From Dehalococcoidia bacterium (GTDB taxonomy: Bacteria; Chloroflexota; Dehalococcoidia; SHYB01), in contig CBDFJU010000003.1 of NCBI GenBank assembly GCA_965248515.1, positions 79,254 to 143,253 of the forward strand: 64,000 bases of DNA. The letters are read 5' to 3'. The notes beneath the pieces are model-generated. The model had not been told where the DNA came from, searched no databases, and was given only the letters and a program-made list of their open reading frames with translations. This document shows positions 7,116 through 64,000 of the stretch, piece by piece. Both the position numbers and the translations under genes were made by a program. Each line of letters begins with the position of its first letter. Position 1 is the first letter of the stretch.

Positions 7116-7316
7116 CTACTGGAGGCCGTACCGTCGCTTGAACCGCTCGACGCGGCCTTCCACGTCAACGATGCGCTGCTCTCCCGTGAAGAACGGGTGG
7201 CAGTTGCTGCAAAGCTCGACTTTCAGCAACGGCTTGGTCGACCTGGTCTCCCAGGAATTGCCGCAGGCGCATTCGACCCGCGACCGGACGTACTCTGGAT
7301 GGATCTGTGCTTTCAA
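7116..7316 (-). CDS. rpmE: 50S ribosomal protein L31
   Basis: MKAQIHPEY...CxxC...[10 protein letters not shown] signature. Confidence 0.9.
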
Positions 7317-7328
7317 CTCGACAGCCCT

Positions 7329-7586
7329 CTAAGAAACTGGATAGACGCTGACGCGCCTCTTGGATTTAGATGCAGGTTCGTACTTAACGGTTCCATCGAC
7401 ACGCGCCCAGAGGGTATGGTCCCTGCCAAGGTCCACATTGGTGCCGGCGAAGATCCTTGTCCCGCGCTGCCGGACCAGAATCGAGCCCGCCGTCACCACC
7501 TGGCCGTCGTAACGCTTAACTCCCAGCCTTTGCCCTTGGCTGTCGCGTCCGTTTCGGCTTGTCCCCGACCCCTTCTTGTGGGCCAT
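7329..7586 (-). CDS. rpmA: 50S ribosomal protein L27
   Basis: [17 protein letters not shown]-terminus. Confidence 0.9.
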
Positions 7587-7977
7587 CGCTCGCTACCTCT
7601 ACTTTGGGTTTCCGAGTCCTGCTCGCCGCCGGCTTCTTGGCCGGCTTCGCGGCACCGCCATCCGTCGCGATCTCCTGGATGGCGATTCGCGAGTAGAGCT
7701 GTCGGTGACCTTTCTTGCGACGATACCTGACCTTCGGCTTGTACTTGAAGACGATGACCTTCTTGCCCTTGCCCTCGTCTTCCACCTTGGCGGTAACCCG
7801 GGCGCCCTCGACCAGCGGCCGGCCCACGGTCACCTGATCGTCGACATTGACCAATAGCACCTTCTCGATGTTGAGGGTGTCGCCGGGCGGCGTGTCCAAC
7901 CGTTCGACGTCGAGGACGTCGCCGGGAGAGACGCGGTACTGCTTGCCGCCGGTTTCGATGATCGCGTAGGTAGTCAT
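7516..7977 (-). CDS. rplU: 50S ribosomal protein L21 with ~50 aa Lys/Pro-rich C-terminal extension
   Basis: [16 protein letters not shown]...KKGHRQ core; extension overlaps rpmA start by 71 nt in another frame. Confidence 0.8.
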
Positions 7978-8131
7978 GAATGGGTCACGCAATTGACAAT
8001 GATAGCTTCTGAAGCCGACTCCTGTCAACGGAATTCGACGCCGCAAAGCTCGCGAGCCGGCGCTCCAGGCAGGCCCACGTACGTTCACGCTGCATTACAC
8101 TCTCCGCAACCACAGCCGCAAGGAGCCCACC

Positions 8132-9687: not shown

Positions 9688-10578
9688 ATGCAATTAGGCA
9701 ATGGTTCGGACGAAGAGGCGCTGGAGTTTTCGTTCAAATACAATCCGCCGATGGACCATGAGGTGGCCCAACGGAACCTGAAGGAGGCTAAGCAGATATT
9801 CCATCAGCTGGGAATCGTGTTCCTCCTCTATTCGGGAACGTGTCTCGGCGCTATCAGGGACAACGCCTTCATTCCATGGGACGACGATATGGACGTCATT
9901 TCCGTGGTCGGCCTCAACGGCCTCACCGACGAGTCGGTAGATGCAGCCGTGCGCGTCTTTGAGAAGAACGGATACTACGTCCGTGAGTCGGCTGGCGCCT
10001 ACGCCAGAAGCATGTCCATGATCAAAGACCACGTGAGGATAGGATGGGACTGTGCGTCTATCACCGACGACAGCATCTACGCCTATCCCGGGGTCCGCAT
10101 CCCCGCTAATTTCTTCACCGAGCCTCGAGAAGTGAGATTCCTCGGCGAGAGCTTCCTGGTGCCGAGCCCACCCGAGGAGTACCTGCGTTTGAAGTATGGC
10201 GAGGAGTGGAGGATACCGAAAAAAGCGGGCACATACGAGATAGACGTCGTGGAAAAGATCCCCGGCGCAGACCTGATCGGAGCCCCCAGCAGGGTCAGAG
10301 TGCTGGACGACAAGGGCGACCCTGTCCATAGGGCCGAGGTGGTGCTCGTTGGAGGCGGTCGCTGCGAGACTGACGAGGGCGGTTACGCCGAGATCATCGT
10401 TCCGGGTCTCGCCTGGTATGCCCTCGTCATCAGGTATCCAGGGCACGAAGAAGTACTCTACATGGAAGAAATCGAACCCGATAGGACGTACGTGTACAGG
10501 GCGGACCACGCGTCGAACGTAGCCAGCAGCGTCTCGGGCTCGGTCGGGACGCTAGGGAGAGTCCTGACGCTTGAGTGA
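9688..10578 (+). CDS. licD: LicD family phospho-aminoalcohol (phosphocholine-type) transferase
   Basis: LLYSGTCLGAIRDNAFIPWDDDMDV matches the LicD/fukutin nucleotidyltransferase-fold motif; GGGAGG RBS; lower GC than surroundings. Confidence 0.75.
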   Translation: MQLGNGSDEEALEFSFKYNPPMDHEVAQRNLKEAKQIFHQLGIVFLLYSGTCLGAIRDNAFIPWDDDMDVISVVGLNGLTDESVDAAVRVFEKNGYYVRESAGAYARSMSMIKDHVRIGWDCASITDDSIYAYPGVRIPANFFTEPREVRFLGESFLVPSPPEEYLRLKYGEEWRIPKKAGTYEIDVVEKIPGADLIGAPSRVRVLDDKGDPVHRAEVVLVGGGRCETDEGGYAEIIVPGLAWYALVIRYPGHEEVLYMEEIEPDRTYVYRADHASNVASSVSGSVGTLGRVLTLE

Positions 10579-10606
10579 GCTCAAGCTGTCAGTGAACCCC
10601 GCCGTC

Positions 10607-11422
10607 TCATAGGCGGTCGCGTACGGGCGCTGTTCTCCGCTCGTCCGGGACCACCCGAGGTCCCGATCGGAGATCCAGACCAAGCGCCGGAGAAAGCCGC
10701 ATCTTCTCCGCGTCCACGAGGTCTTCCCGAGTGTCGATTTCGCCCCAGGCGCGAGGGCCGGTGCGCAAGACTTCAAGCTGAAGGGTCCCTTCCGCGATGG
10801 CGCTGGATATCGCCGCTTCGTAAAAGATATCGGTCTGGCCCTGCGAGACGTAGGCAGCGAGTGCGGGCATCAGAACGTAGCTGACGGCCTGGTGAGAGAA
10901 TTTGTAGATGTTCACCGTCTTGAGTGCGGATTCGTAGTCGAAGCCACGGGGCTGCTCCCGCCCGAGCACCATTGCGGTCGCCCTGTCGCCATGCGTCAGG
11001 ACCACCGTCCCGTTCATGAACGGCTGGAAGCGATCTACAACAGCGGCGTTCTTGTTGGGAACCTCGAGGAGGTCCATCAGGAGTCCGGAGTCGAAGACCA
11101 GGTCTCCTTCCAGCAGCAACAGGTCTTCGGTTATCCGGGGCCGAGCCAACCAGAGCGAGTAGATGTTGTTCGTGCGATCGAAAATTTCGTTCTCCACGTA
11201 CGTGATGGAGAGGTTTCGAAAATGAGCGCCAAAGTAATCGCGCACCTGCTCGGCGCGGTAGCCGACGACGATGATGCACTCCCGCAAGCCCGCGTCGCTC
11301 AGTGCCTCTAGTTGGTGTTGGAGAATCGGCTTGCCCTGCACTTCCACGAGGCACTTTGGGCAACGGTCTGTGAGCGGGCGCAGCCTTGTCCCCTGGCCGG
11401 CTGCGAGAATGACAGCTTGCAT
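10607..11422 (-). CDS. LicC-like phospho-aminoalcohol cytidylyltransferase
   Basis: AVILAAGQGTRLRPLTDRCPKCLV... and NNIYSLWLA closely parallel S. pneumoniae LicC (AIILAAGLGTRLRPMT..., NNFYSLYL). Confidence 0.75.
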   Translation of the reverse strand: MQAVILAAGQGTRLRPLTDRCPKCLVEVQGKPILQHQLEALSDAGLRECIIVVGYRAEQVRDYFGAHFRNLSITYVENEIFDRTNNIYSLWLARPRITEDLLLLEGDLVFDSGLLMDLLEVPNKNAAVVDRFQPFMNGTVVLTHGDRATAMVLGREQPRGFDYESALKTVNIYKFSHQAVSYVLMPALAAYVSQGQTDIFYEAAISSAIAEGTLQLEVLRTGPRAWGEIDTREDLVDAEKMRLSPALGLDLRSGPRVVPDERRTAPVRDRL

Positions 11423-11430
11423 CTTTGCTC

Positions 11431-12531
11431 CTACCTCCTTGCGCCCTCTGGAGCCGACGCTCCACGCGCCAGGCTCATCAGGGCCCTCACCAGCCCCTCG
11501 TTCTCCTCGGTGGTTCTCGATGCGATCCTGAAGAATCCGCTGTCCAGGCCCCGCTTGCCGCTGCAGTCATTGACCAGGACCCCACACTCGTCGAACAGAC
11601 GGGCAGCGATCCCCGACCCGGTGAGACCGGGAGACGTTCTGCAGAGCACATAGTTCCCGTGGGTCGGATAAGGTTCCAGGAAGGGCACGTTTTGAAGTGC
11701 CCGATACAGCGACTGTGCGGCCCGCGTTACCTGGTTACAGGACTCGGCGAACTGGGAGCCATACCGGCCCATGTTCTCGAGAAAGAATTGCGCGAGCGAG
11801 TTAATGCTCCAGATCGGCAGCTCCGCCCGCAGCCTCGCAATGAACCGCGCGTCTCCCGAGGCGGCGTATCCCAGACGCAGGCCGGGGACCCCGTATGCCT
11901 TTGACATGCTGTTGACGATCACCAGGTTCGGGAAATCGTGGATCAGGCCCGCCACGCTGAGGTCTGGGTAGTCCGGTCCCGCGAAGTACAGGAACGACTC
12001 GTCCACAAGAACGATGTCGAGATCGCCGAAGGCCCGGAGCATCTGAACGACCTCGTCCTTCGAGACCAGTGTGCCGGCTGGATTGTTGGGCCGTATGATG
12101 GTCACCGAGTTGGCGCCCACCTCCGACACGTGGGCTATGAACCCATCTACGTCCAGACTGAAGTCGTCCCCCATCGCATACGGGCTCACCCGCTTGCCCT
12201 GAGTCTCCGCCCTGTTCCAATACTCGTCGAAGGTCGGGATGGGTATCGCAAGATGCTCGACGCGTAGCGCGGTGATGGCGTTGATGAGCTCGCTTGCGCC
12301 GTTACCGACGACCAGCTCGTCGGGAGTCCAGCCCAGGGGCTCGGCGACCAGGCTCGATAGGTGACGGTTCGTCGAAGGGTAGGACCCCACGAGCGTCCGA
12401 AGACTCGACGAGAGCGACTCGAAGAACTCCTCCGGCGGGAAATAGCGGTTCGTCATATAGCAGAAGTCCTGGACGTTAAAATTCCAGAACCCGCCGTAAA
12501 GCGACGAGACGGCTCTCCTGTCTCCAGCCAT
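11431..12531 (-). CDS. class I/II PLP-dependent aminotransferase-fold enzyme, CobD-like (Thr/Ser-phosphate decarboxylase family)
   Basis: fold-type I PLP enzyme pattern (SMSKAYGVPGLRLGY Lys region), histidinol-P aminotransferase/CobD-like length; co-oriented and adjacent to licC-like. Confidence 0.65.
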   Translation of the reverse strand: MAGDRRAVSSLYGGFWNFNVQDFCYMTNRYFPPEEFFESLSSSLRTLVGSYPSTNRHLSSLVAEPLGWTPDELVVGNGASELINAITALRVEHLAIPIPTFDEYWNRAETQGKRVSPYAMGDDFSLDVDGFIAHVSEVGANSVTIIRPNNPAGTLVSKDEVVQMLRAFGDLDIVLVDESFLYFAGPDYPDLSVAGLIHDFPNLVIVNSMSKAYGVPGLRLGYAASGDARFIARLRAELPIWSINSLAQFFLENMGRYGSQFAESCNQVTRAAQSLYRALQNVPFLEPYPTHGNYVLCRTSPGLTGSGIAARLFDECGVLVNDCSGKRGLDSGFFRIASRTTEENEGLVRALMSLARGASAPEGARR

Positions 12532-13008
12532 GCATCTCCTTCAGTAGAAATCGCGTCGGGCCGCTCAGGCGGCGTAGTGTTCGGATGGTAGCCCGCACGG
12601 CGGTTCCCTCGGCCAGAACAATTGGGAGCGGCTCCGCAAGCCCGTTGCGACAGGTCGCTAGTCGCGGGCTGAACAGGCCATTGCCGGGGTGCCGTCCATG
12701 GGCCGCCCTGCGGAGCCGCGTCAGGCGGGAGGTTCTACGGCCTCCGGGCGAGGGCTGCGGCCCAGGCTGCCTCGCCGGGGAAGAAACCCGATACCAGCCA
12801 TCAGAGCGGGTGCGATACCCTGCGGAACCACGGGGCCCCGGTGCGTGCGGGACACACTCGATAGCCAGTGCGTTTTTGCGGATCTTTTAATCAAACTGGA
12901 TGTGGACCTCGGGGTACGCGGCGAGTGTACACGGGCGCTGTGATTTGTCAACGCCCGCGAAAGCTCGCCGGTATCGCCGAACGACGCCCTGGCGCTCGAG
13001 AAGAAGGG

Positions 13009-13539
13009 CTAGGCGGCGTTGCCGGACCCGGCGATGAGCGCGACAATGACGAGTCTCAGCAGGAAACCGGGGGCCACCGCCAACAATGCCCTGAACCCGG
13101 ACACGCCCAGGGTGGCTTTTACCGCCACGACCATCGTGGCTACCATGTAGAAGACCACCAACCCCGACAGTATCGGCCCAAACCCAGGGATGAACACAAA
13201 TACGAACAGGAGCCCGGGCGATGTCGAATAGCCGAGGGCGCCAGCCAACTCGCTAATCGATGGCTTCGGCGCTCCCGGATTCTGGCTCATCCGGCCGATC
13301 ATCAGCGCCGACGTCGCCTGGATAAGCCAGAGCCCCGGCATGATAAGGACCGCCAGGGCAATGGCGCCGCCGATACTCCGGTCTGACAGCGCGTCGTCTA
13401 TCGTAAACCCGATCGCATTGGCAAGGCTTACCAGAAGCACGACCACGAGCGCCTGTGCGCCCGCGACCGGGTCGGTCCGAAGCTCAACATAGAGCCGGGG
13501 GTCGAGCAGCGCGGCCCGGATCATTCGCGCGAACAGCAT
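13009..13539 (-). CDS. Yip1-family integral membrane protein
   Basis: five predicted TM helices, Yip1/DUF1282-like N-terminus. Confidence 0.55.
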   Translation of the reverse strand: MLFARMIRAALLDPRLYVELRTDPVAGAQALVVVLLVSLANAIGFTIDDALSDRSIGGAIALAVLIMPGLWLIQATSALMIGRMSQNPGAPKPSISELAGALGYSTSPGLLFVFVFIPGFGPILSGLVVFYMVATMVVAVKATLGVSGFRALLAVAPGFLLRLVIVALIAGSGNAA

Positions 13540-16128: not shown

Positions 16129-16205
16129 TGGTCGGGGCGCCGAGATTTGAACTCGGGACCCCCTGCACCCCATGCAGGTGCGCTACCGGGCTGCGCCACG
16201 CCCCG
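16129..16205 (-). tRNA. tRNA-Pro (anticodon GGG)
   Basis: 77 nt cloverleaf folded by hand: 7-bp acceptor CGGGGCG/CGCCCCG, D stem GCGC, anticodon stem CCUGC/GCAGG with loop AUGGGGU, T-arm CCGAG-UUCAAAU-CUCGG, encoded CCA. Confidence 0.9.
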
Positions 16206-23613: not shown

Positions 23614-25050
23614 TCAGGATGCGAGGTCGAATAGCGTCGTCACCCGATCCACCGCCGCCGGCTCGGTCGAAATCACCAGGAGTGTCTCGTCGCCTCCGAA
23701 GGCGACATGGTGTCGTTTGCCATCGAACGAGCCAGTGGCCACGGAGTCGGTCTTGTCGAGCCCGATGTCCCGCGCCTCCAACAACCGAACGTAGCCGTCG
23801 TAGAACTCCTCAGCGTCGCGTTCCGTGCCCCAACGGGCCAGGTTCAAGAACAGGCTCGAGCCGCCCGGCCCCCGAAGCAGCACGTAGCGATCGCCGCCCC
23901 AGCCGGCGGCCGCCCTGCTCGCGCGCCGGGTGGATATCCGCTCCTCGAGGACGAGCTTGTAGAAGAACTCGCCCATGACATCCACGTCCGCTTCCTCCCA
24001 GCCCTCGCCGAGGGCCTGGGCGACGTCCGGCAGGTCGATGGTAAGCGCCGGCTCGCGCTCGTCGTACTTGCCCGGATGCATGATCTGCTCGCTCGTGGTC
24101 GGTGGGTCGGCATAGGCGGCGTTGACTGCATCCCAACCGCCCTGGCCGAACAGGTAAAGCACGAATCCGAGGCCCTCCCGATAGGGGAAGGTCGCGCTCT
24201 CCTCGATGACCCTCGGTACGTCCGGGCTCAGCCCTTCCACCTCCTGGGCCTGACGGATCGTCTCGGCCTGATCGAGGTGCTCGCCAGCGTACCGGCCCGA
24301 GGCGAGTGTTGCGTCGCCTTCAAAGAGCACCCGGAGCGCAAAGCGGGCCTCCGAATCCTCTCCCGCGGCGTCCAGCATCGCCGTCAGGTCGAACAGGCTC
24401 TGCTGGATCGCGTGGGCGAACTCGTGGGAGTAGATGAACTCTTCGAGGAGGTCGACGGCCCCATCATTGGCCAGAACAAACAACTCCCCTGACTCAGGGT
24501 TGAACTGCCCGAGGACCTGCGACTGGGAGTGGGCCAGGGTGAGCTCCTTCAAGTCGTGGTTCTCGTCCAGGAGCCCGAGAAGGAGCAGCACCTCCTGGGA
24601 CGCGGCCAGCTCGGCTTCGTCGGCCTCGTCGAACTGCGCCTCGAGAATGGCGTCGAACTCCTCCCGCGTGATCAGCCGGCGTTGCAGCGCATCTCCGGTC
24701 GGCGCGCCCCTATCTTCCGCGACCCGCTGCTCGATGGCGTCGAGCACGAGGCTGACCTCCGGGGACAGGGTTGGGGGCGCAGGCGGAGGTGTCGCCGTCG
24801 CGGCAGTCTCGGTTGGGGGGAGCGACGTCACGCCGGGACGGGTCGCCGTCGCGGTTACAGGATCAGGCAACACGGAGGGCGAGGAGGAAGTCGTTGCGGT
24901 GGGAAGCACGGTTGCAGTCGGCTCGGGCGTCGGCGATAGGCCATCGCCCGATGCGCATCCTGCGACGACCAGGCCCAGTCCAATCGCTAGAGCCGCAACG
25001 CCAAACCTCTTCGAGTGAGACGGCCCAGGTTTCGTTGGAGACAAGCTCAT
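23614..25050 (-). CDS. secreted lipoprotein, putative Zn-metallopeptidase (HEFAH motif)
   Basis: lipobox VVAGCASG; Pro/Thr-rich linker; SHEFAHAIQ HExxH-type motif. Confidence 0.5.
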   Translation of the reverse strand: MSLSPTKPGPSHSKRFGVAALAIGLGLVVAGCASGDGLSPTPEPTATVLPTATTSSSPSVLPDPVTATATRPGVTSLPPTETAATATPPPAPPTLSPEVSLVLDAIEQRVAEDRGAPTGDALQRRLITREEFDAILEAQFDEADEAELAASQEVLLLLGLLDENHDLKELTLAHSQSQVLGQFNPESGELFVLANDGAVDLLEEFIYSHEFAHAIQQSLFDLTAMLDAAGEDSEARFALRVLFEGDATLASGRYAGEHLDQAETIRQAQEVEGLSPDVPRVIEESATFPYREGLGFVLYLFGQGGWDAVNAAYADPPTTSEQIMHPGKYDEREPALTIDLPDVAQALGEGWEEADVDVMGEFFYKLVLEERISTRRASRAAAGWGGDRYVLLRGPGGSSLFLNLARWGTERDAEEFYDGYVRLLEARDIGLDKTDSVATGSFDGKRHHVAFGGDETLLVISTEPAAVDRVTTLFDLAS

Positions 25051-29117: not shown

Positions 29118-31220
29118 TCAACCGGCCACCCGCACCGCCGCCGCCAGCCGCTGCCGCGACTCCGTCTCCGTGACGGTCGCGACGACGGCGGCCAGCGTCT
29201 CGCGGTAGGTTTCGACAAACGCGGGGTCGATCTCCCCCGCGTTCACGATTCCCCGGTAGCGCTCGGTGGCACGAGTGAGAGCCGACGCGAGCCATGCTTC
29301 GCCGCGGAGGTCGGCAAGGACGAGGAGGAAACGTGCGTCATTCTCCAGCGAGATCGGGAGCCCGGGCTGCGCCCGTAGTCTGGGCGCATCGAAGGCTAAG
29401 AACGCGAGCGCGTCCTCGACGGTCTCCTCGTGGCCCCGGTCATCGAAGGCGAGGGTCAGGCGCGCCGCAACATCGGGGTCGACGTTCACCAGCCGGTAGA
29501 TGGCGCGGGCCGGCGGCACTCGGATTGGGCTCGCCTCGCGGAGCGCGTCCACCGCCGCAGCCAGGTTGGAGCCGAAGAGGCGGGCCGCTTCGCCGGCGTG
29601 CTGCACCAGAAACGGCTCGAGGTGGAGCCCGGTGTCGACGAATACCCGCATGGCGTCGACAGACGATCTCGCCCCGATGGCGACGACCCGCTCGTAGACC
29701 GCATCGAGATACGCATTTTGGCGGAGCGGCCGGGCGGGCAGGCCTTTCAGGACCAGCGGCACGATCCGGGCGAGCCCGTCCGGGTCCCGGCCGTCCCCGA
29801 ACCCCAGGCGCGGGATGACCTCCTCCGGGTCGAGGAGTGCGCGCACCGTCGAGGCATCCCTCGTCACGACGAACCGCAAGTTCTCCTGTGATAGCCCGAG
29901 CAGCAGGTCGCTGGCCAACTCCCGGTCGATGCTGCCAACCACGTCGAGAACGAAATTGAGGTCGCGGAAGCCGCGCCTGTTCAGCCCTTGAATGAATGCC
30001 TCGAAGGAGGTTAGTGCGCTCGCCGGTTCGCGTTGCATTGCGGCGGCCAGGTCGAGGAGCTCGACGTGGAAGGGGTGGAGGGCTTCGCGCACCCGCCTCG
30101 CCACCCGTCGCTCCTCGGCCGTCTGTCCCTCGGCGATGAGTCCCGCAAGAGTCGGATGTTCGAGTGTGGACACGAAATCGAGCAGTGACTCCTCCCGCGC
30201 CAGCCGTTCCCTGGCGGCGTTGACCCGTTCGTCCTGAGGCAGGTCCCGCAGCTCGAGCACAAACTCGAAAGCCTGTGGGATGCGCCCGTCCTCGAGAGCG
30301 TTGGGATACGCGCCGAAGACGAACGCAGTGTCGCGGAGGTAGTCGCGCCAGAAGTGGAACTGGTTGGCTACGGGCTCGCCATCGATCTCCTTGAAGAACA
30401 GGTCGAACTGCTCGGCGAAGTCGCGGACCCGCTGTCGCTGCTCCCTGGCCGCGACGCGAGCCACGGCCTCGGGCAGCCGAGCCGATGGGTCGAGGTCGAC
30501 CTCGTACCCGTCCATGGGCACGCTCCCGATGCCGTAGACGGACGAGGCTACCCGGCGCTGGTCGTCGGGCAGCGAGCGGTACCAACGGACCGCCTCGTCC
30601 CACGACGCGAGATCGCCCGAGGCGAGGAACGGGCTGTAGTACTTCCGCAATATCGGTGGGACGAGGTTGAGGTTCCCTCCGGTGAGGGAGACGATGTCGG
30701 CCTCGCCCAGGTGGTACAGCCCTGGATAGTCGCCAACCGAAAGGTTCGGGATGCGCCGCAGCCGCTCCCGCAGAGGTTCGAAGCCATCGGGCGGCTGCTG
30801 CATGAACGTGTCGAGGTCTCGCCGCAGGGCCAGGAGCGCCGGCGACAGTCGCTCCCCCGACGGCACCGCCCACGAAAGCTCGGGTCTTCCGATCACGGGG
30901 AAGGGACCCCAGATCGAATGGGAGATCTCGTGGACGATCGATGCGGGCCGCGCCTGCCCGACGCCGATCCAATGCTCGAAGCCACGGCTTCCGAACCATC
31001 CCGGGCGGCCCAGGACGTGATGGACCCGCATCGCTCGCACCACGGCCTCGCCCTGGGGCGTGAGATTGTAAAGAGAAAGGACCGCTTCGACCCGCTCCCG
31101 GGCCCAGTCATCCCGCGGCGCCAGGGGCGGCTGGCCGTCGCGACCGGATCGGAGAGAGCCGCCGCACGAGGCCGCCACCAGGGTCAGCCCGAGGGCCAGA
31201 AGGACGACGCGGCGGGGCAT
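29118..31220 (-). CDS. large secreted lipoprotein of unknown function (HEISH motif)
   Basis: signal peptide with lipobox AASCGG; 700 aa; VHEISHSIW HExxH-like. Confidence 0.55.
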   Translation of the reverse strand: MPRRVVLLALGLTLVAASCGGSLRSGRDGQPPLAPRDDWARERVEAVLSLYNLTPQGEAVVRAMRVHHVLGRPGWFGSRGFEHWIGVGQARPASIVHEISHSIWGPFPVIGRPELSWAVPSGERLSPALLALRRDLDTFMQQPPDGFEPLRERLRRIPNLSVGDYPGLYHLGEADIVSLTGGNLNLVPPILRKYYSPFLASGDLASWDEAVRWYRSLPDDQRRVASSVYGIGSVPMDGYEVDLDPSARLPEAVARVAAREQRQRVRDFAEQFDLFFKEIDGEPVANQFHFWRDYLRDTAFVFGAYPNALEDGRIPQAFEFVLELRDLPQDERVNAARERLAREESLLDFVSTLEHPTLAGLIAEGQTAEERRVARRVREALHPFHVELLDLAAAMQREPASALTSFEAFIQGLNRRGFRDLNFVLDVVGSIDRELASDLLLGLSQENLRFVVTRDASTVRALLDPEEVIPRLGFGDGRDPDGLARIVPLVLKGLPARPLRQNAYLDAVYERVVAIGARSSVDAMRVFVDTGLHLEPFLVQHAGEAARLFGSNLAAAVDALREASPIRVPPARAIYRLVNVDPDVAARLTLAFDDRGHEETVEDALAFLAFDAPRLRAQPGLPISLENDARFLLVLADLRGEAWLASALTRATERYRGIVNAGEIDPAFVETYRETLAAVVATVTETESRQRLAAAVRVAG

Positions 31221-31298: not shown

Positions 31299-33224
31299 TT
31301 ACTTGCTGAGCGCGATGGTCGTGCCGTCGCTGTCGCCGTCCGGGTCATGGTTCGCCAAGGCGTCGTAGTCGCCCGAAACGCCGGTCACCACGAAGGACTT
31401 GCCGCTGCCGCCCTTGCTCGCCCACTGGCCGGAGTCCACCGTGCAGGCCCCCGTGCCATCCGTGGTGCAGCTATCCGTAGTCTCGACCGTCCCGTTCTGC
31501 ATGAAGTCGCCGGTGACGATGATCCCAGCCACGCCAGCGTGGCTGCCATTGTCTACGGTGATGACGACCTGCGAGCTCCAGTTCCCCTGGCTCAGCTTGG
31601 TGCTGCTCCCATCCAGGTCACCCACGTGGTTGCTCGGCGACACCGTGTTATCCACGGTGACGTTCACCGAGTCGTTCGCCGTCTGGCTGTTCGTGTCGGT
31701 CGCTGTCGCGCTCACCGTGTGGGCATCATCGGTCTCGCCAGTCGTATCCCAGGAAGCGGACCAACCGTCGCCGCCGTTCGTATCGGTGCCGATGCTGCCG
31801 CCGTCCACGAAGAACTCGACCTGGGTGACGCCGTTGTCGTCACTGGCATCGGCGGTGACGACAACGGTCCCGCCCACGGTGGAGTCATCGGACGGGTTGG
31901 TGATCGACACAGTTGGCGGATCGTCCACGTTGTCCACGGTCACGGAGATGCTGTCGCTACCGGTCTTGCCAACCGTATCGGTAGCCTCCGCGCTGACGGC
32001 GTGGCCGCCTTCGGAGGCCGTGGTCGTGACCCAGGAGGCCGACCAGCCGTCGACGCCGTTCGTGTCGACGCCTATGCTTCCGCCGTCCACGAAGAACTCG
32101 ACCTCCGTGACGCCGTTGTCATCGCTGGCGTCGGCGGTGACGACAACGGTCCCGCTCACGGTGGCGCCGTCGAGCGGACTGGTCACAGTCACCGATGGCG
32201 GCGTGTCGCCGGCCGACGTGGCAATCGTGACGTTGAAGTGGGCCAGCACGTTCTGAATCTTGTTGGCAAAGGTGGTCGTGGAGTTCCCGGCGAACAGCAG
32301 TCCCACAGGATTATTGAAGGTATCGACGATCAGTGATCCGTAGTCGCCTCCGGCGCTGAAGGCCCCGGACCCAATGGCAATCTGGTCGTCGAACCTCGCC
32401 AGCTTGTTTTTCTTGCAACGGAAAGGACCCTGGGATTGGTAGCAGATGTCGACGGTCACGTTGGTAGCGGTAACGCTGCCGGTCGTATGACCCGTCGTCC
32501 GGCCGCACTTTTGCACGCTCTGGCCGTTCGACGCGGCAACCGGCGTGCTCGTGGGGGTCCCGTAGCCAAGGTCGGCGGGCGTCGAAGCGGAGACTGGGAC
32601 CTCGGGGCTCGCGATCGCGGCATCAATAGCATTCGGGGCAGGCCAATTGAAATCGATGGGCTGGAAATCGAACAGCGAGGCGACCCTATCGGCGGGATCG
32701 GCGCCGCCATCCGCCGGACCAGGCTGGAGAGCGCTGTCGCCGATGGAGGCGCTGTTGACGTCGGCGAGGACGTGGTTGTTACTCATCATGAACTGGTTGC
32801 CCTGGCCGTCCTCGACCAACGCTCCATAGGTGCCCGCGGTGATCGACGGATGACCGATGGACGCGCAGAGGGTCGGCGGCCGGAGCCTGCTCTGGGGATC
32901 AGTAGCGCGGGCGACGATCATGCTGCCGACGACCTCGACCACGGGCACTCCGTTGAGGGTTGCGGGGGCGGCGCCCGCCGCGGTGGACCAGACGACGACC
33001 GCGGCCTGGCCGTTGGAAGTCGTGACGCCGGCGCCGTCGATGTTGGGATGCGCAAGCAGGCGGGCCTCGTTGCGCTCTTTGGCCGCAAGGGCCGCCGCGA
33101 AGCCGGGAGGCTCGTGGCTCCCACCCGTTCCGTGACTACCGGAGGCCGCCGCGGGCGCCGCCAGGCTCAACACGAGAGAGATGGCCAGCAGGCCGATGGT
33201 TACCAAACGCCGTTTACCGAACAT
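31299..33224 (-). CDS. secreted S1-like (alpha-lytic/streptogrisin-like) protease domain protein with two tandem Ig-like repeats
   Basis: signal peptide; N-terminal domain with His/Asp and GDYGS region; two ~97-aa repeats (PPSVTVTSPLDGATVSGTVVVTADASDDNGVTEVEFFVDGGSIG...). Confidence 0.55.
   Translation of the reverse strand: MFGKRRLVTIGLLAISLVLSLAAPAAASGSHGTGGSHEPPGFAAALAAKERNEARLLAHPNIDGAGVTTSNGQAAVVVWSTAAGAAPATLNGVPVVEVVGSMIVARATDPQSRLRPPTLCASIGHPSITAGTYGALVEDGQGNQFMMSNNHVLADVNSASIGDSALQPGPADGGADPADRVASLFDFQPIDFNWPAPNAIDAAIASPEVPVSASTPADLGYGTPTSTPVAASNGQSVQKCGRTTGHTTGSVTATNVTVDICYQSQGPFRCKKNKLARFDDQIAIGSGAFSAGGDYGSLIVDTFNNPVGLLFAGNSTTTFANKIQNVLAHFNVTIATSAGDTPPSVTVTSPLDGATVSGTVVVTADASDDNGVTEVEFFVDGGSIGVDTNGVDGWSASWVTTTASEGGHAVSAEATDTVGKTGSDSISVTVDNVDDPPTVSITNPSDDSTVGGTVVVTADASDDNGVTQVEFFVDGGSIGTDTNGGDGWSASWDTTGETDDAHTVSATATDTNSQTANDSVNVTVDNTVSPSNHVGDLDGSSTKLSQGNWSSQVVITVDNGSHAGVAGIIVTGDFMQNGTVETTDSCTTDGTGACTVDSGQWASKGGSGKSFVVTGVSGDYDALANHDPDGDSDGTTIALSK
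31700..32270. repeat. two ~290-bp tandem DNA repeats encoding Ig-like domains (approximate bounds)
   Basis: near-identical 80+ nt blocks at ~31790-31875 and ~32083-32166 read directly. Confidence 0.7.
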
Positions 33225-62041: not shown

Positions 62042-62174
62042 ACCTGAACGGCGATTCGGAAATTTACCTGCAAAATGGGCTTAATTTCTATTTACAGGGG
62101 TAGACAGGTGTGCTAGGATAGGACCACTCTGAGTCTGTTTAGGACTCCAATCAATATTGCGAGGGGGGGCCTAC

Positions 62175-62375
62175 ATGGCATACAGCACCGTAAGCAAAAA
62201 GTCCGGCAAGACTTATTATCTCCATTCCAAAGATGTCACACTCAAGGGTGGACAGAAGCAAAGGATCTATTATTTCGCGGGGGCAGCCGGAGCCAACGCA
62301 ATCGACGCGCTTCCCGGCGGCTACAAAGTTGTCGAGAACGAGCGGACCGGCCTTCCGCTGCTGAAGAAGGGCTAA
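62175..62375 (+). CDS. small Lys-rich hypothetical protein with atypical (AT-rich) codon usage
   Basis: GAGGGGGGG RBS 6 nt before ATG; flanked by AT-rich DNA and a strong terminator. Confidence 0.45.
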   Translation: MAYSTVSKKSGKTYYLHSKDVTLKGGQKQRIYYFAGAAGANAIDALPGGYKVVENERTGLPLLKKG

Positions 62376-62526
62376 CAAAGACAGACAGAGAACGGCGTCG
62401 GTCAGTTTTCATCGTCTTTCGTTAATCGTTCATCAGTCTCTGGCCGGTGGTCGTTATGGCCCCTGCGGCGCAAGCGGTCGACTCCTAAGCGTCGTGCGCG
62501 TTAAGCGTCGCTCTCATCGAGAGGAT

Positions 62527-62565
62527 AAAAATCCCTGTGCCGCCAGGCGGCACAGGGATTTTGTC
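62527..62565. terminator. bidirectional rho-independent terminator (14-bp perfect palindrome AUCCCUGUGCCGCC/GGCGGCACAGGGAU with A- and U-tracts)
   Basis: read directly. Confidence 0.8.
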
Positions 62566-62723
62566 GATAACACCCGTATGCGACTGCGTTTCGTCCCCTG
62601 CGATGTCGCGGCTGCGGTCCGCTCATGTTGAGCCCGGCACTCGGACTCCCAACAGATATAGGCCCTATACTTGGCTTCTACTATGCTAGTAACGAGCGGA
62701 AAGCAAGCTTAGGCACTCGGGCC

Positions 62724-64000
62724 TTGCACCCGGATACTCAGACCAAGTCGTTGCTCGACACCGTGCTGCGCCTGTCTCGCGCCGAGCAAACGGAGGTCAC
62801 GGTACGGGCCACGGACTCGTCGCTGACCCGTTTTGCCAACAACGGGGTGCACCAGAACGTCGCAGAGCGCGACAGGACCGTGTCGGTGCGCGTTCAGTCA
62901 GGCCGTCGTTACGGCCTCGCCTCCACCAACGACCTCAGTGACACGGGCCTGCAGCGAGTCTCGGACCAGGCGTTGGAGGTCGCGGAGGCGCTCCCCGACC
63001 TAGACGACTTCCTTCCGCTGCCCGAGCCTCAGCGGGTCTCCGACGTTCCGGCTCACGCCGTGAGCACGGCGGAGTACGGTCCGCTGCAGCGGGCGGTCGC
63101 CGTGAGGACCATCTGTCAGAAGGCACACGAGCGTGACCTGATCGCCGCCGGGGCCTTCGAGATCGACATCGCGAGCCACACCATCGCCAACTCCCTGGGC
63201 CTCCTTGCGCATCACGTCACGGCGACAGCCGAGTTGATGACTGTGGTGATGTCGGATGACAGCTCGGGCCATGCCGCCCGGCTGTCGCTCGATGCCGAGG
63301 AGATCGACGCTGAGGCGGTGGCTGACGAAGCCATCGACAAGGCCCTCCGCAGCCGAAATCCGCGGAGCCTCGAGCCTCGAGTGTACGAGGTGGTGCTAGA
63401 GGAGCACGCGGTAAGCGATATGCTCGACTTTCTCGGGTTCACCGGCTTCGGCGCCCTCTCTATTCAGGAAGGCCGCAGCTTCATGTCGGGCAAGCTGGGC
63501 AGCGCCGTGATGGGCCCGAACATCTCGATCCGAGACGACGCACTCGACCCTTCCGGGGTCCCTCGCTCCTTCGATGCCGAGGGCGTCCCAGCTCGCCGAG
63601 TCGACCTCGTAGTCGATGGTGTCGCCAGATCGGCGGTGTACGACCGCCGGACCGCAGCATCCGGGGAAGCGACTTCGACCGGACACGCCCTTCCCTCCGA
63701 AGTGACCCTGGGCCCGCTGCCGAGGAACATGTTCCTCGAGCCGGGACAGGCGTCCAAAGAAGAGCTCGTGCAGTCCGTGAAGCGCGGCTTGCTGGTTACC
63801 CGCTTCTGGTACACGCGGGTCGTTCATCCACTGACGGTCCACATGACGGGCATGACTCGGGACGGCACGTTCCTCATCGAGAACGGCGAGATCGTCGCGC
63901 CGGTGCGGAACCTTCGCTTCACCGAGAGCTACGTTCAAGCCCTCGGGCGCGTCGGCCTCATCGGGAAAGAGACTCGGCTCGTTCGAGACTTCTTCTCTAC
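62724..64000 (+). CDS. TldD/PmbA family metallopeptidase-like protein (3' partial; runs off window, absent from ORF track)
   Basis: manual translation of open frame: ...TRFANNGVHQN...VRVQSGRRYGLASTNDLS...VTRFWYTRVVHP...; start (TTG 62724 or ATG 62625) uncertain. Confidence 0.6.
   Translation, partial: MHPDTQTKSLLDTVLRLSRAEQTEVTVRATDSSLTRFANNGVHQNVAERDRTVSVRVQSGRRYGLASTNDLSDTGLQRVSDQALEVAEALPDLDDFLPLPEPQRVSDVPAHAVSTAEYGPLQRAVAVRTICQKAHERDLIAAGAFEIDIASHTIANSLGLLAHHVTATAELMTVVMSDDSSGHAARLSLDAEEIDAEAVADEAIDKALRSRNPRSLEPRVYEVVLEEHAVSDMLDFLGFTGFGALSIQEGRSFMSGKLGSAVMGPNISIRDDALDPSGVPRSFDAEGVPARRVDLVVDGVARSAVYDRRTAASGEATSTGHALPSEVTLGPLPRNMFLEPGQASKEELVQSVKRGLLVTRFWYTRVVHPLTVHMTGMTRDGTFLIENGEIVAPVRNLRFTESYVQALGRVGLIGKETRLVRDFFS

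Follow-up and report, generated by a model that had tools for sequence, protein, structure and literature searches.

A CobD-like enzyme, a LicC-like nucleotidyltransferase and a LicD-family transferase form a putative CDP-aminoalcohol cassette in a Dehalococcoidia bacterium

We describe three adjacent genes in a 64,000-nt stretch of DNA from a Dehalococcoidia bacterium (Chloroflexota; contig CBDFJU010000003.1), called the window below; all positions are window coordinates. On the minus strand, a two-gene operon encodes a class I/II pyridoxal phosphate (PLP) enzyme of CobD/HisC fold (11431..12531, 366 aa) and a LicC/PntC-type nucleotidyltransferase (10607..11422, 271 aa). Convergent with it on the plus strand lies the gene of a LicD-family phosphotransferase (9688..10578, 296 aa). 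An original prediction for this DNA had read the three genes as a pathway in which the CobD-like enzyme makes a phospho-aminoalcohol, the LicC-like enzyme activates it and LicD transfers it, the group being not necessarily choline. All three open reading frames (ORFs) were found exactly where they had been placed, and their family assignments were upheld. This central idea is well supported by operons in related genomes that run from the PLP enzyme through the nucleotidyltransferase to LicD, by fusions of the first two proteins in many phyla, by three partner families whose known members use CDP-alcohols and by a substrate pocket with the Glu/Glu pair of a primary-amine enzyme. On balance we consider it probable that the cassette makes a CDP-aminoalcohol, likely CDP-ethanolamine from phosphoserine, for transfer by LicD.

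Results

Layout of the operon

The operon starts with the PLP gene (12531 to 11431) and continues with the nucleotidyltransferase gene (11422 to 10607), the reverse of the order first proposed, in which the LicC-like gene led. The two are separated by a gap of 8 nt, which makes translational coupling probable. The convergent arrangement with licD was confirmed, the stop codons of licD and of the operon being 28 nt apart.

The PLP enzyme

The product of the first operon gene matched Aminotran_1_2 in Pfam (E 2e-29). Its top NCBIfam model was that of CobD (TIGR01140) with 176.6 bits, below the cutoff of 290.55, and the second best was HisC (TIGR01141) with 147.5 bits against a cutoff of 276.55. 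In the choice between CobD and HisC, which the original prediction had left for checking, the CobD model was thus ahead and the HisC cutoff was not reached. No his genes were found near the cassette, and genes of a cobamide context (cbiB, cobS, cobU/cobY etc.) were absent from the scanned ORFs of the window and from the recurrent neighbours at about 90 related loci. From the scores below both cutoffs, and from the missing cobamide and histidine context, the enzyme appears to be neither CobD nor HisC proper.

A sequence search of the PDB placed the PLP enzyme closest to 6OUX, a 'threonine phosphate decarboxylase-like enzyme' (E 6e-44), with S. enterica CobD (E 7e-28) and the best HisC (E 6e-27) far behind. 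Two unusual motifs, CY..N.Y in the N-terminal part and YPS, are common to the window protein and 6OUX. We take 6OUX to be SMUL_1544, the O-phospho-L-serine decarboxylase of norcobamide synthesis in Sulfurospirillum multivorans. SMUL_1544 governs the synthesis of norcobamide, with its ethanolamine linker, as described in papers that cite the work on it. The PLP lysine of the window enzyme is K211, within the motif NSMSKAYGVPGLRLGY, and K211 and 65 other residues were invariant across 21 homologues. The active-site residues separated neither decarboxylase from aminotransferase nor phosphoserine from threonine phosphate as substrate.

The enzyme is most likely a phospho-amino-acid decarboxylase, predicted to convert O-phospho-L-serine to phosphoethanolamine. 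Phosphoserine is favored over threonine phosphate because it is a ubiquitous metabolite, because no threonine kinase recurs near the module, because the methyltransferases at sister loci described below match phosphoethanolamine N-methyltransferases best among solved structures, and because 6OUX, presumably a phosphoserine enzyme, is the closest relative.

The nucleotidyltransferase

The second operon gene encodes a protein of the Pfam families NTP_transferase and NTP_transf_3. Its matches include the MobA-like family PF12804, which takes in CobY-type enzymes. The nucleotidyltransferase signature GxGTR...PK lies at residues 9-23 (G9-Q-G-T-R13...P22-K23) and is accompanied by a TNNIYSLW motif; the two stretches quoted in the original prediction, AVILAAGQGTRLRPLT and NNIYSLWLA, are both present. 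Pneumococcal LicC (1jyk) was the top sequence match in the PDB (E 3e-19) and has the NNxYSL motif in common with the window protein. For an AlphaFold2 (AF2) model with a pLDDT of 89, the top fold match was PntC-AEPT of Treponema (6pd2, E 2.5e-19, TMq 0.76), and LicC 1jyk matched with a TMq of 0.73 and a root-mean-square deviation of 2.5 A.

The pocket residues give a more specific indication. In the Treponema denticola enzyme (Tde-PntC), the 2-aminoethylphosphonate substrate is held at its primary amine by hydrogen bonds to Glu104 and Glu196 (Rice et al. 2019, PMC6697681), whereas in LicC the smaller Asp105 and Asp192 at the amine positions leave room for choline (PMC6697681). In HMMER alignments, E105 and E202 of the window protein aligned with E104/E196 of Tde-PntC and D105/D192 of LicC. 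The protein therefore lacks the LicC-type Asp/Asp choline pocket and should not be classed as a phosphocholine-specific LicC; the label that its homologues carry at NCBI is 'phosphocholine cytidylyltransferase family protein'. The Glu/Glu pocket was kept in 71 of 74 family members, regardless of the partner gene or of a methyltransferase nearby. As to the question of LicC or PntC versus a sugar-1-phosphate enzyme, every cutoff for sugar-1-phosphate nucleotidyltransferases was far from reached. The assignment as a predicted CTP:phospho-aminoalcohol cytidylyltransferase with a primary-amine pocket is well supported.

LicD and its origin

LicD matched PF04991 with 52.7 bits (cutoff 22.6) and contains, as had been quoted, the motif FIPWDDDMDV at residues 61-70. 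Residues W64, D65, D66, D67 and D69 (WDDDxD) were invariant in 32 homologues; four conserved Asp residues are described for Mf1 and LicD proteins (PMC11982090) and correspond to this motif. The protein has two parts: a catalytic domain of nucleotidyltransferase fold at about residues 1-195, which carries W64-DDD-x-D69, and a C-terminal transthyretin-like (CarboxypepD_reg) beta-sandwich at residues 199-271, which had a weak Pfam match. In the AF2 model (pLDDT 87), the N-terminal domain resembled the catalytic domain of FKRP (6l7u/6kam, E 2e-8 over about 170 residues, Foldseek), and a structure search matched the C-terminal domain to the transthyretin-like domains of carboxypeptidases. FKRP is a CDP-ribitol-dependent enzyme of the LicD superfamily. 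A by-eye reading of the sequence, made without a predictor, gave no obvious signal peptide or transmembrane segment. The top NCBIfam match was the Mf1 cholinephosphotransferase (NF045866) with 57.7 bits against a cutoff of 225, and by this score the window LicD does not appear to be an Mf1 orthologue.

The closest LicD homologues in related genomes (69-71 % identity) lie directly 3' of the PLP and nucleotidyltransferase genes in co-directional operons (loci L092 and L094 of the comparison described below), and the PLP enzymes of these two operons are only 57-58 % identical to that of the window. Conversely, loci with a PLP enzyme of 76-81 % identity (L087, L001, L085, L086) have a LicD that is just 41-44 % identical to the window protein. 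In the window, licD is moreover inverted with respect to the operon. From the inverted orientation and the discordant identities, it is probable that a licD of another lineage took the place of the earlier copy and that the gene was turned around. In the genome of L001, a second, stand-alone LicD was seen about 20 kb from the operon (L093).

Apart from this probable replacement of licD, there is no real sign of lateral exchange. The original prediction had argued for horizontal acquisition of all three genes from a GC content well below that of the flanks. Their GC content is indeed lower, with 58.2 % for licD, the lowest of the three, 60.9 % for the nucleotidyltransferase and 61.9 % for the PLP gene, compared to 65.6 +/- 2.2 % for the 48 other ORFs (z = -3.4, -2.2 and -1.7). 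The drop is modest, however, and confined to codon positions 1 and 2; GC at the third codon position was normal in all three genes (z = -0.3, -0.2 and +0.3, respectively). Normal third-position GC and the presence of the module throughout Dehalococcoidia, where it is ancestral, rule out a transfer argued from base composition.

Conservation of the PLP-nucleotidyltransferase module

The comparison comprised 94 related loci, numbered from L001, whose ORFs were called by a crude greedy longest-ORF method and clustered before the cluster representatives were annotated; a metagenome scan with a single protein query returned 4 loci. Homologues of all three proteins came nearly all from metagenome-assembled genomes (MAGs) of Dehalococcoidia/Chloroflexota, the marine SAR202 group among them. 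At 88 of 93 loci the PLP and nucleotidyltransferase genes lay next to each other, and in Dehalococcoidia their order was that of the window. In 42 of the 74 cases analysed they formed a single ORF of about 600 aa, with the nucleotidyltransferase as N-terminal and the PLP enzyme as C-terminal part. Such fusions occurred in Bacillota, Bacteroidota, Acidobacteriota, Myxococcota, Pseudomonadota, Actinomycetota, Spirochaetota, Aquificota and several candidate phyla and, among archaea, in Bathyarchaeota, Thermoplasmata, Aenigmarchaeota and Methanomicrobia. They are strong evidence that the two enzymes catalyze consecutive steps. The flanking genes were different at every locus and insertion sequence elements adjoined several of them, so that the module behaves as a relocatable unit.

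Recurring third partners were counted within 6 kb of the pair. LicD was present at 26 loci, with 2 more of a more canonical LicD type, and a CDP-alcohol phosphatidyltransferase (CDP-OH_P_transf; PssA-like, sub-threshold) at 22. A methyltransferase whose top PDB matches were plant and nematode phosphoethanolamine N-methyltransferases (E ~1e-9) accompanied the pair at 16 loci. A second methyltransferase type, inserted between nucleotidyltransferase and LicD, was found at 10 loci, all from Dehalococcoidia, and a TagF-like glycerophosphotransferase at 9. LtaS-like sulfatases were further recurrent neighbors. CDP-alcohol donors are the substrates of those LicD and TagF-like proteins that have been characterised, and of the CDP-alcohol phosphatidyltransferase family overall. 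No cobamide, histidine or phosphonate genes recurred near the module at about 90 loci, nor did a PduX-type threonine kinase. The motif EDKxxxxxNS, which we take to be the phosphoenolpyruvate (PEP) mutase signature, was absent from the window and from the 94 loci.

Co-directional operons that run from the PLP enzyme through the nucleotidyltransferase to LicD are typical of the relatives (L001, L002, L011, L032, L087, L092, L094), and all seven are devoid of a methyltransferase. Among the closest relatives, those that share the leader sequence described below, the place of the third gene is taken either by LicD or by a CDP-alcohol phosphatidyltransferase together with a methyltransferase. At L004, L006, L025, L083, L084 and L088-L091, LicD is replaced by a PssA-like (sub-threshold) phosphatidyltransferase and a phosphoethanolamine-N-methyltransferase-like gene, about 100-1500 nt 3' of the nucleotidyltransferase gene. 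At L086 alone, LicD and the phosphatidyltransferase occur together. This alternation suggests that the same donor module feeds the synthesis of phosphatidylethanolamine/phosphatidylcholine (PE/PC)-type lipids in very close relatives. Judging from gene order, fusions and partners, the PLP-nucleotidyltransferase pair appears to be an ancient donor-synthesis module, variously combined with LicD, with phosphatidyltransferase and methyltransferase, or with a TagF-like protein.

Fused versions were also seen next to other genes. At L046, L059, L060, L067, L069, L071-L074 and L081 (Bacillota, Spirochaetia and other MAGs) and at L043, L051, L055, L057 and L058 (MAGs of Bacteroidales, Lachnospiraceae and Methanomicrobia), the neighbors included TagF-like proteins, LtaS-like sulfatases (one as a YidC-like fusion), octopine-dehydrogenase-like, ornithine-cyclodeaminase-like and DUF1015 proteins. 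As a lead only, the product of the opine dehydrogenase next to the fused enzyme could be N-(1-carboxyethyl)ethanolamine phosphate, which occurs as a substituent in O-antigens of Proteus and Providencia.

The leader of the operon and its candidate promoter

The intergenic gap 5' of the PLP gene measures 477 nt (12532-13008); an untranslated leader of 470 nt had been proposed. Only about 390 nt of it would be transcribed, given a candidate sigma-70-like promoter, TTGACA-N16-TACACT, on the minus strand at 12924..12951 (read from 12951 to 12924). The element agreed with the consensus at 10 of 12 positions, and in the alignment TTGACA...TGTAnACT occupies the corresponding place in L004, L006, L083, L084, L088, L089 and L091. 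The remaining stretch, 12532..12923 on the minus strand, is a candidate cis-regulatory 5' leader of the operon. With nhmmer we detected it at full length in front of the PLP gene at 8 further loci (L004, L006, L083, L084 and L088-L091; E 1e-88 to 1e-105) and its 3' part (75-200 nt) at 5 more; it was found neither in relatives whose PLP enzyme is 68 % identical or less, nor elsewhere in the window. Operons that end in LicD and operons that end in phosphatidyltransferase and methyltransferase both carry it.

A known riboswitch was considered and rejected, as Rfam gave no match, either for cassette and leader in E-value mode or for the whole window in gathering mode, a scan to be taken with caution since it also missed the tRNA-Pro(GGG) that ARAGORN located at 16129-16205. 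RNAalifold gave weak global support (-31 kcal/mol, with a positive covariation term), and we do not claim a defined structure. Compensatory changes were present in 15 of 63 predicted pairs, and 85.5 % of the cells were paired. The covariation score of 0.266 was above the 0.212 of shuffled alignments, none of 500 of which scored as high, and the 15 pairs changed on both sides compared with 9.6 in the shuffles, 3 of 500 being as high. In one helix the Shine-Dalgarno region is paired with a CUYYG segment, and a hairpin lies just 5' of the ribosome-binding site GAAGGAG (12542-12536); in this folding model it is possible that the helix sequesters the Shine-Dalgarno sequence. Because the covariation stems from about four independent lineages only, we keep to the proposal of a candidate new cis-regulatory RNA. 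This leader of about 390 nt may serve to control how the operon is expressed.

Neighboring genes and other features of the window

The flanking genes are housekeeping genes. On one side lie dnaJ, DUF1385, a short-chain dehydrogenase/reductase and an HD-domain protein, and small ORFs at 7116-8088 that, judged by eye, encode ribosomal proteins L31, L27 and L21. On the other side are a 176-aa membrane protein (13009-13539), pyrD and the tRNA-Pro. The membrane protein, directly upstream of the operon, was considered as a part of the system and rejected: it had no Pfam or NCBIfam match, and none of the related loci has a homologue. Among 50 window ORFs scanned with Pfam there was no glycan-assembly gene, choline kinase, choline permease, small-molecule methyltransferase or CDP-alcohol phosphatidyltransferase.

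An inverted repeat read off the sequence, GCTTGAG-TGAG-CTCAAGC at 10570..10587, spans the licD stop codon. With its arms of 7 bp it extends into the 28-nt convergent gap; it has no T-run, and a terminator scan made no call there. Even without a T-tract, it may terminate transcription from both sides. Elsewhere, about 1 kb at 62050-63000 is gene-poor and has the lowest GC of the window (57 %), with only short overlapping ORFs and no Rfam match. Upstream of it lies an ORF whose translation, judged by eye, resembles a lipoyl-domain E2 acyltransferase. Finally, two large ORFs of 478 and 700 aa matched no Pfam family, and a 641-aa protein has two Big_7 (bacterial Ig) domains. These three proteins (23614-25050, 29118-31220, 31299-33224) may be envelope or surface proteins and have no evident link to the cassette.

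Discussion

We propose that the CobD-like enzyme would decarboxylate a phospho-amino acid, likeliest O-phospho-L-serine, to give phosphoethanolamine. Going by its family, by the fusions and by its pocket residues, the LicC/PntC-type enzyme would then convert phosphoethanolamine with CTP to CDP-ethanolamine. LicD, to judge from its family a Mg-dependent and seemingly cytoplasmic enzyme of LicD/fukutin type, would in turn move the phospho-aminoalcohol from CMP to a hydroxyl group of an acceptor. Candidates for the latter are a lipid-linked glycan, a glycolipid or a protein, and the C-terminal beta-sandwich of LicD may aid its binding. A cassette of this kind would be self-contained, allowing decoration with a phospho-aminoalcohol without imported choline or ethanolamine.

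The acceptor is where we depart from the original prediction, which had named surface decoration of a glycan or teichoic-acid-like polymer. No envelope-glycan genes flank the cassette. A glycolipid acceptor appears at least as plausible, since sister loci carry a lipid-type phosphatidyltransferase and the best model match of LicD is a glycolipid-modifying enzyme. That enzyme, Mf1 of Mycoplasma fermentans, transfers phosphoethanolamine from CDP-ethanolamine, as well as phosphocholine, to glucosyl-diacylglycerol in vitro (PMC11982090). The window LicD, although of the same family, differs from Mf1 in its score below the model cutoff and in its C-terminal domain.

Several observations weigh against the proposed pathway. 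The PLP enzyme stays under the curated cutoffs of both CobD and HisC, and its sequence alone does not split a decarboxylase from an aminotransferase of the Cj1437 type, or phosphoserine from threonine phosphate. For the nucleotidyltransferase, sugar-1-phosphate enzymes trailed PntC and LicC only slightly in the fold search and were the top NCBIfam matches, yet far below cutoff (114 vs 292-400). The Pfam model of LicD covers only 30 residues (41-70), and licD is on the opposite strand and of another lineage than the operon, so that co-function in this very genome rests on proximity and on the orthologous operons. Acceptor-related genes near the cassette were absent from the Pfam scans of window ORFs. 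Finally, the 10 Dehalococcoidia loci with a methyltransferase between nucleotidyltransferase and LicD imply that the final group may be N-methylated in some genomes; a methyltransferase elsewhere in the present genome is possible.

This last observation leads to the alternative that the architecture is as proposed and the group transferred is phosphocholine or an N-methylated phosphoethanolamine, with an S-adenosylmethionine-dependent methyltransferase, encoded elsewhere in the genome, acting on phosphoethanolamine or on its CDP or transferred form and LicD acting as a classical phosphocholine transferase. Besides the 10 loci just mentioned, the 16 loci with a phosphoethanolamine-N-methyltransferase-like gene, the reputation of LicD as a phosphocholine transferase and the naming of the cytidylyltransferase family at NCBI speak for it. 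On the other hand, neither type of small-molecule methyltransferase is encoded within the 64-kb window, the pocket is of the Glu/Glu primary-amine kind and not the roomier Asp/Asp kind whether or not a methyltransferase is nearby, and many operons, the seven cited above, do without one; we regard N-methylation as unlikely here, if worth bearing in mind. The ethanolamine skeleton itself could be wrong if the PLP enzyme were an aminotransferase that turns dihydroxyacetone phosphate into serinol phosphate, from which CDP-serinol would be made and phosphoserinol transferred. The HisC/CobD fold with its 147.5 bits on the HisC model would permit this, the Glu/Glu pocket would suit the primary amine of serinol phosphate, and serinol phosphate occurs in glycolipid GGPL-III of Mycoplasma fermentans, the organism with the LicD-like Mf1. 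A precedent is Cj1437 of C. jejuni, an aminotransferase that makes serinol phosphate for glycan decoration (PMC12409886). Against serinol stand the CobD score above that of HisC, the much closer relation to 6OUX than to any solved HisC, and the co-occurring phosphoethanolamine-N-methyltransferase-like genes, which point to an ethanolamine skeleton, and we give it a rather small chance. The top NCBIfam model, L-threonine-O-3-phosphate decarboxylase CobD, would instead suggest threonine phosphate as substrate, with (R)-1-amino-2-propanol phosphate being cytidylylated and transferred. We find this improbable in view of the missing PduX-type kinase among the recurrent neighbors at about 90 loci, of phosphoserine being a ubiquitous intermediate where threonine phosphate is not, and of 6OUX rather than S. 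enterica CobD being the best solved relative.

Two further explanations would detach LicD from the operon altogether. In one, the operon belongs to cobamide biosynthesis (CobD with a CobY-like enzyme) or to phosphonate tailoring (an aminoethylphosphonate (AEP) transaminase with PntC), and LicD is an unrelated neighbor. The CobD-likeness of the PLP enzyme and the PF12804 match of the nucleotidyltransferase would fit the former, and the best fold match, PntC-AEPT, itself a nucleotidyltransferase-PLP fusion, the latter. We rejected the cobamide version since no cobamide gene recurs beside the pair at about 90 loci, where its partners are LicD, phosphatidyltransferase, methyltransferases and TagF-like proteins, and the phosphonate version since the PEP mutase motif is missing from the window and all 94 loci. 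AEP transaminases are moreover of class V and not of HisC/CobD type, and the nucleotidyltransferase has the LicC-type NNxYSL motif; both versions together retain very little probability. The other explanation takes the genes as chance neighbors without a common pathway: a HisC, a sugar-1-phosphate nucleotidyltransferase and a stray LicD. Sugar-1-phosphate enzymes as top NCBIfam matches, HisC as second best for the PLP enzyme and licD on the other strand may give that impression. All these matches are far below their curated cutoffs, however; the PLP and nucleotidyltransferase genes stay together, side by side or fused, at 88 of 93 loci, across many bacterial phyla and archaea and amid unrelated flanks; and licD orthologues lie inside the operon in relatives. 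Synteny and fusion data effectively refute chance adjacency.

The proposed route from phosphoserine via CDP-ethanolamine to LicD has parts in common with several known systems. It has the same last two steps as Lic-1 of Streptococcus pneumoniae and Haemophilus influenzae (LicA kinase, LicB transporter, LicC, LicD). Neither LicA nor LicB was found, however, in the cassette or among the 50 ORFs of the window that were scanned; an internal PLP decarboxylase is the predicted source of the precursor; the pocket has Glu/Glu for a primary amine where LicC has Asp/Asp for choline; and LicD has the extra C-terminal transthyretin-like domain. With LicA, LicB and the Asp/Asp pocket all missing, the cassette is not a canonical Lic-1/LicC system. 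A catalogue from 2023 lists four bacterial phosphocholine routes, Lic-1, PmtA, Pcs and an acylation route, and no decarboxylase-fed one (PMC10434233).

Similar in design is PntC-AEPT of Treponema denticola (PDB 6PD1/6PD2), the best fold match, in which the 2-aminoethyl-phosph(on)ate formed by a PLP enzyme is passed to a LicC-like cytidylyltransferase for activation, as is predicted for the cassette. There too, the PLP enzyme and the cytidylyltransferase are often fused and often found by LicD-like transferases, and the same Glu/Glu residues hold the amine. In contrast to the class I/II, CobD-like enzyme of the cassette, its PLP partner is a class V AEP transaminase in a pathway that depends on PEP mutase, and the product of the cassette is predicted to be a phosphate ester, not a phosphonate. 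As a PEP mutase signature is lacking, the cassette is not a Pnt system. CobD-family decarboxylases, acting on threonine phosphate (S. enterica CobD) or phosphoserine (SMUL_1544, Cj1436), have the fold, the PLP-lysine motif and the predicted chemistry in common with the cassette enzyme. The latter differs by its score below cutoff (176.6 vs 290.55) and its place outside a cobamide context, and its product is predicted to be cytidylylated instead of being attached to cobyric acid (CbiB) or bound to glucuronate through an amide (Cj1438). Cj1436 of C. jejuni sets a precedent for a phosphoserine decarboxylase outside cobamide synthesis, supplying ethanolamine phosphate for amidation of the capsule (PMC12409886).

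The same logic, from phosphoethanolamine through CDP-ethanolamine to a transfer that depends on a CDP-alcohol, underlies the eukaryotic Kennedy pathway and the phosphoethanolamine N-methyltransferase route of plants and Plasmodium, and the sister loci add to this likeness with their CDP-alcohol phosphatidyltransferase and phosphoethanolamine-N-methyltransferase-like gene. The differences are that phosphoethanolamine would stem from decarboxylation of phosphoserine and not from an ethanolamine kinase or serine decarboxylase, that the cytidylyltransferase has a LicC/GlmU fold and not the CCT/ECT fold, and that the transferase is LicD and not a CDP-alcohol phosphotransferase. We tentatively put forward a broader proposal, possible but in our view still doubtful. 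The PLP-nucleotidyltransferase pair might be an unrecognised, widespread prokaryotic 'Kennedy-like' module leading from phosphoserine to CDP-ethanolamine, bypassing both the uptake of ethanolamine or choline and PssA/Psd. It would be plugged into LicD for decoration, into phosphatidyltransferase and methyltransferase for PE/PC-type lipids, or into TagF-like enzymes for teichoic-acid-like polymers, and would be controlled in the present clade by an undescribed riboswitch-like leader of about 390 nt. A literature search, mostly outside subscription journals, yielded no paper that joins a phosphoserine or threonine phosphate decarboxylase with LicC/LicD or CDP-ethanolamine in prokaryotes, and an earlier description is possible.

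Conclusions

Where bacterial surfaces and lipids carry the zwitterionic groups phosphoethanolamine and phosphocholine, these bear on recognition by the immune system, on resistance to cationic peptides and on the properties of the membrane. The usual view is that bacteria draw such groups either from choline or ethanolamine taken up from outside (Lic-1, Pcs) or from phosphatidylethanolamine (EptA-type transferases, PmtA). If our proposal is true, a cytoplasmic route from phosphoserine via phosphoethanolamine to CDP-ethanolamine would be an additional source, independent of nutrients. The fusions and gene order of the module suggest that such a route reaches across many phyla, among them gut Bacillota and Bacteroidales, Acidobacteriota, Myxococcota, actinomycetes and several lineages of archaea. 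Its homologues are at present labelled 'histidinol-phosphate aminotransferase', 'choline kinase' or 'NDP-sugar pyrophosphorylase', and many genes with such labels would in that case need re-annotation. Little is known of the envelope of marine and subsurface Dehalococcoidia, SAR202 among them, and for these bacteria a specific modification of envelope or lipids is predicted from the cassette. The chief interest would be that a two-gene core, or its fusion, is so widespread and currently mis-annotated.

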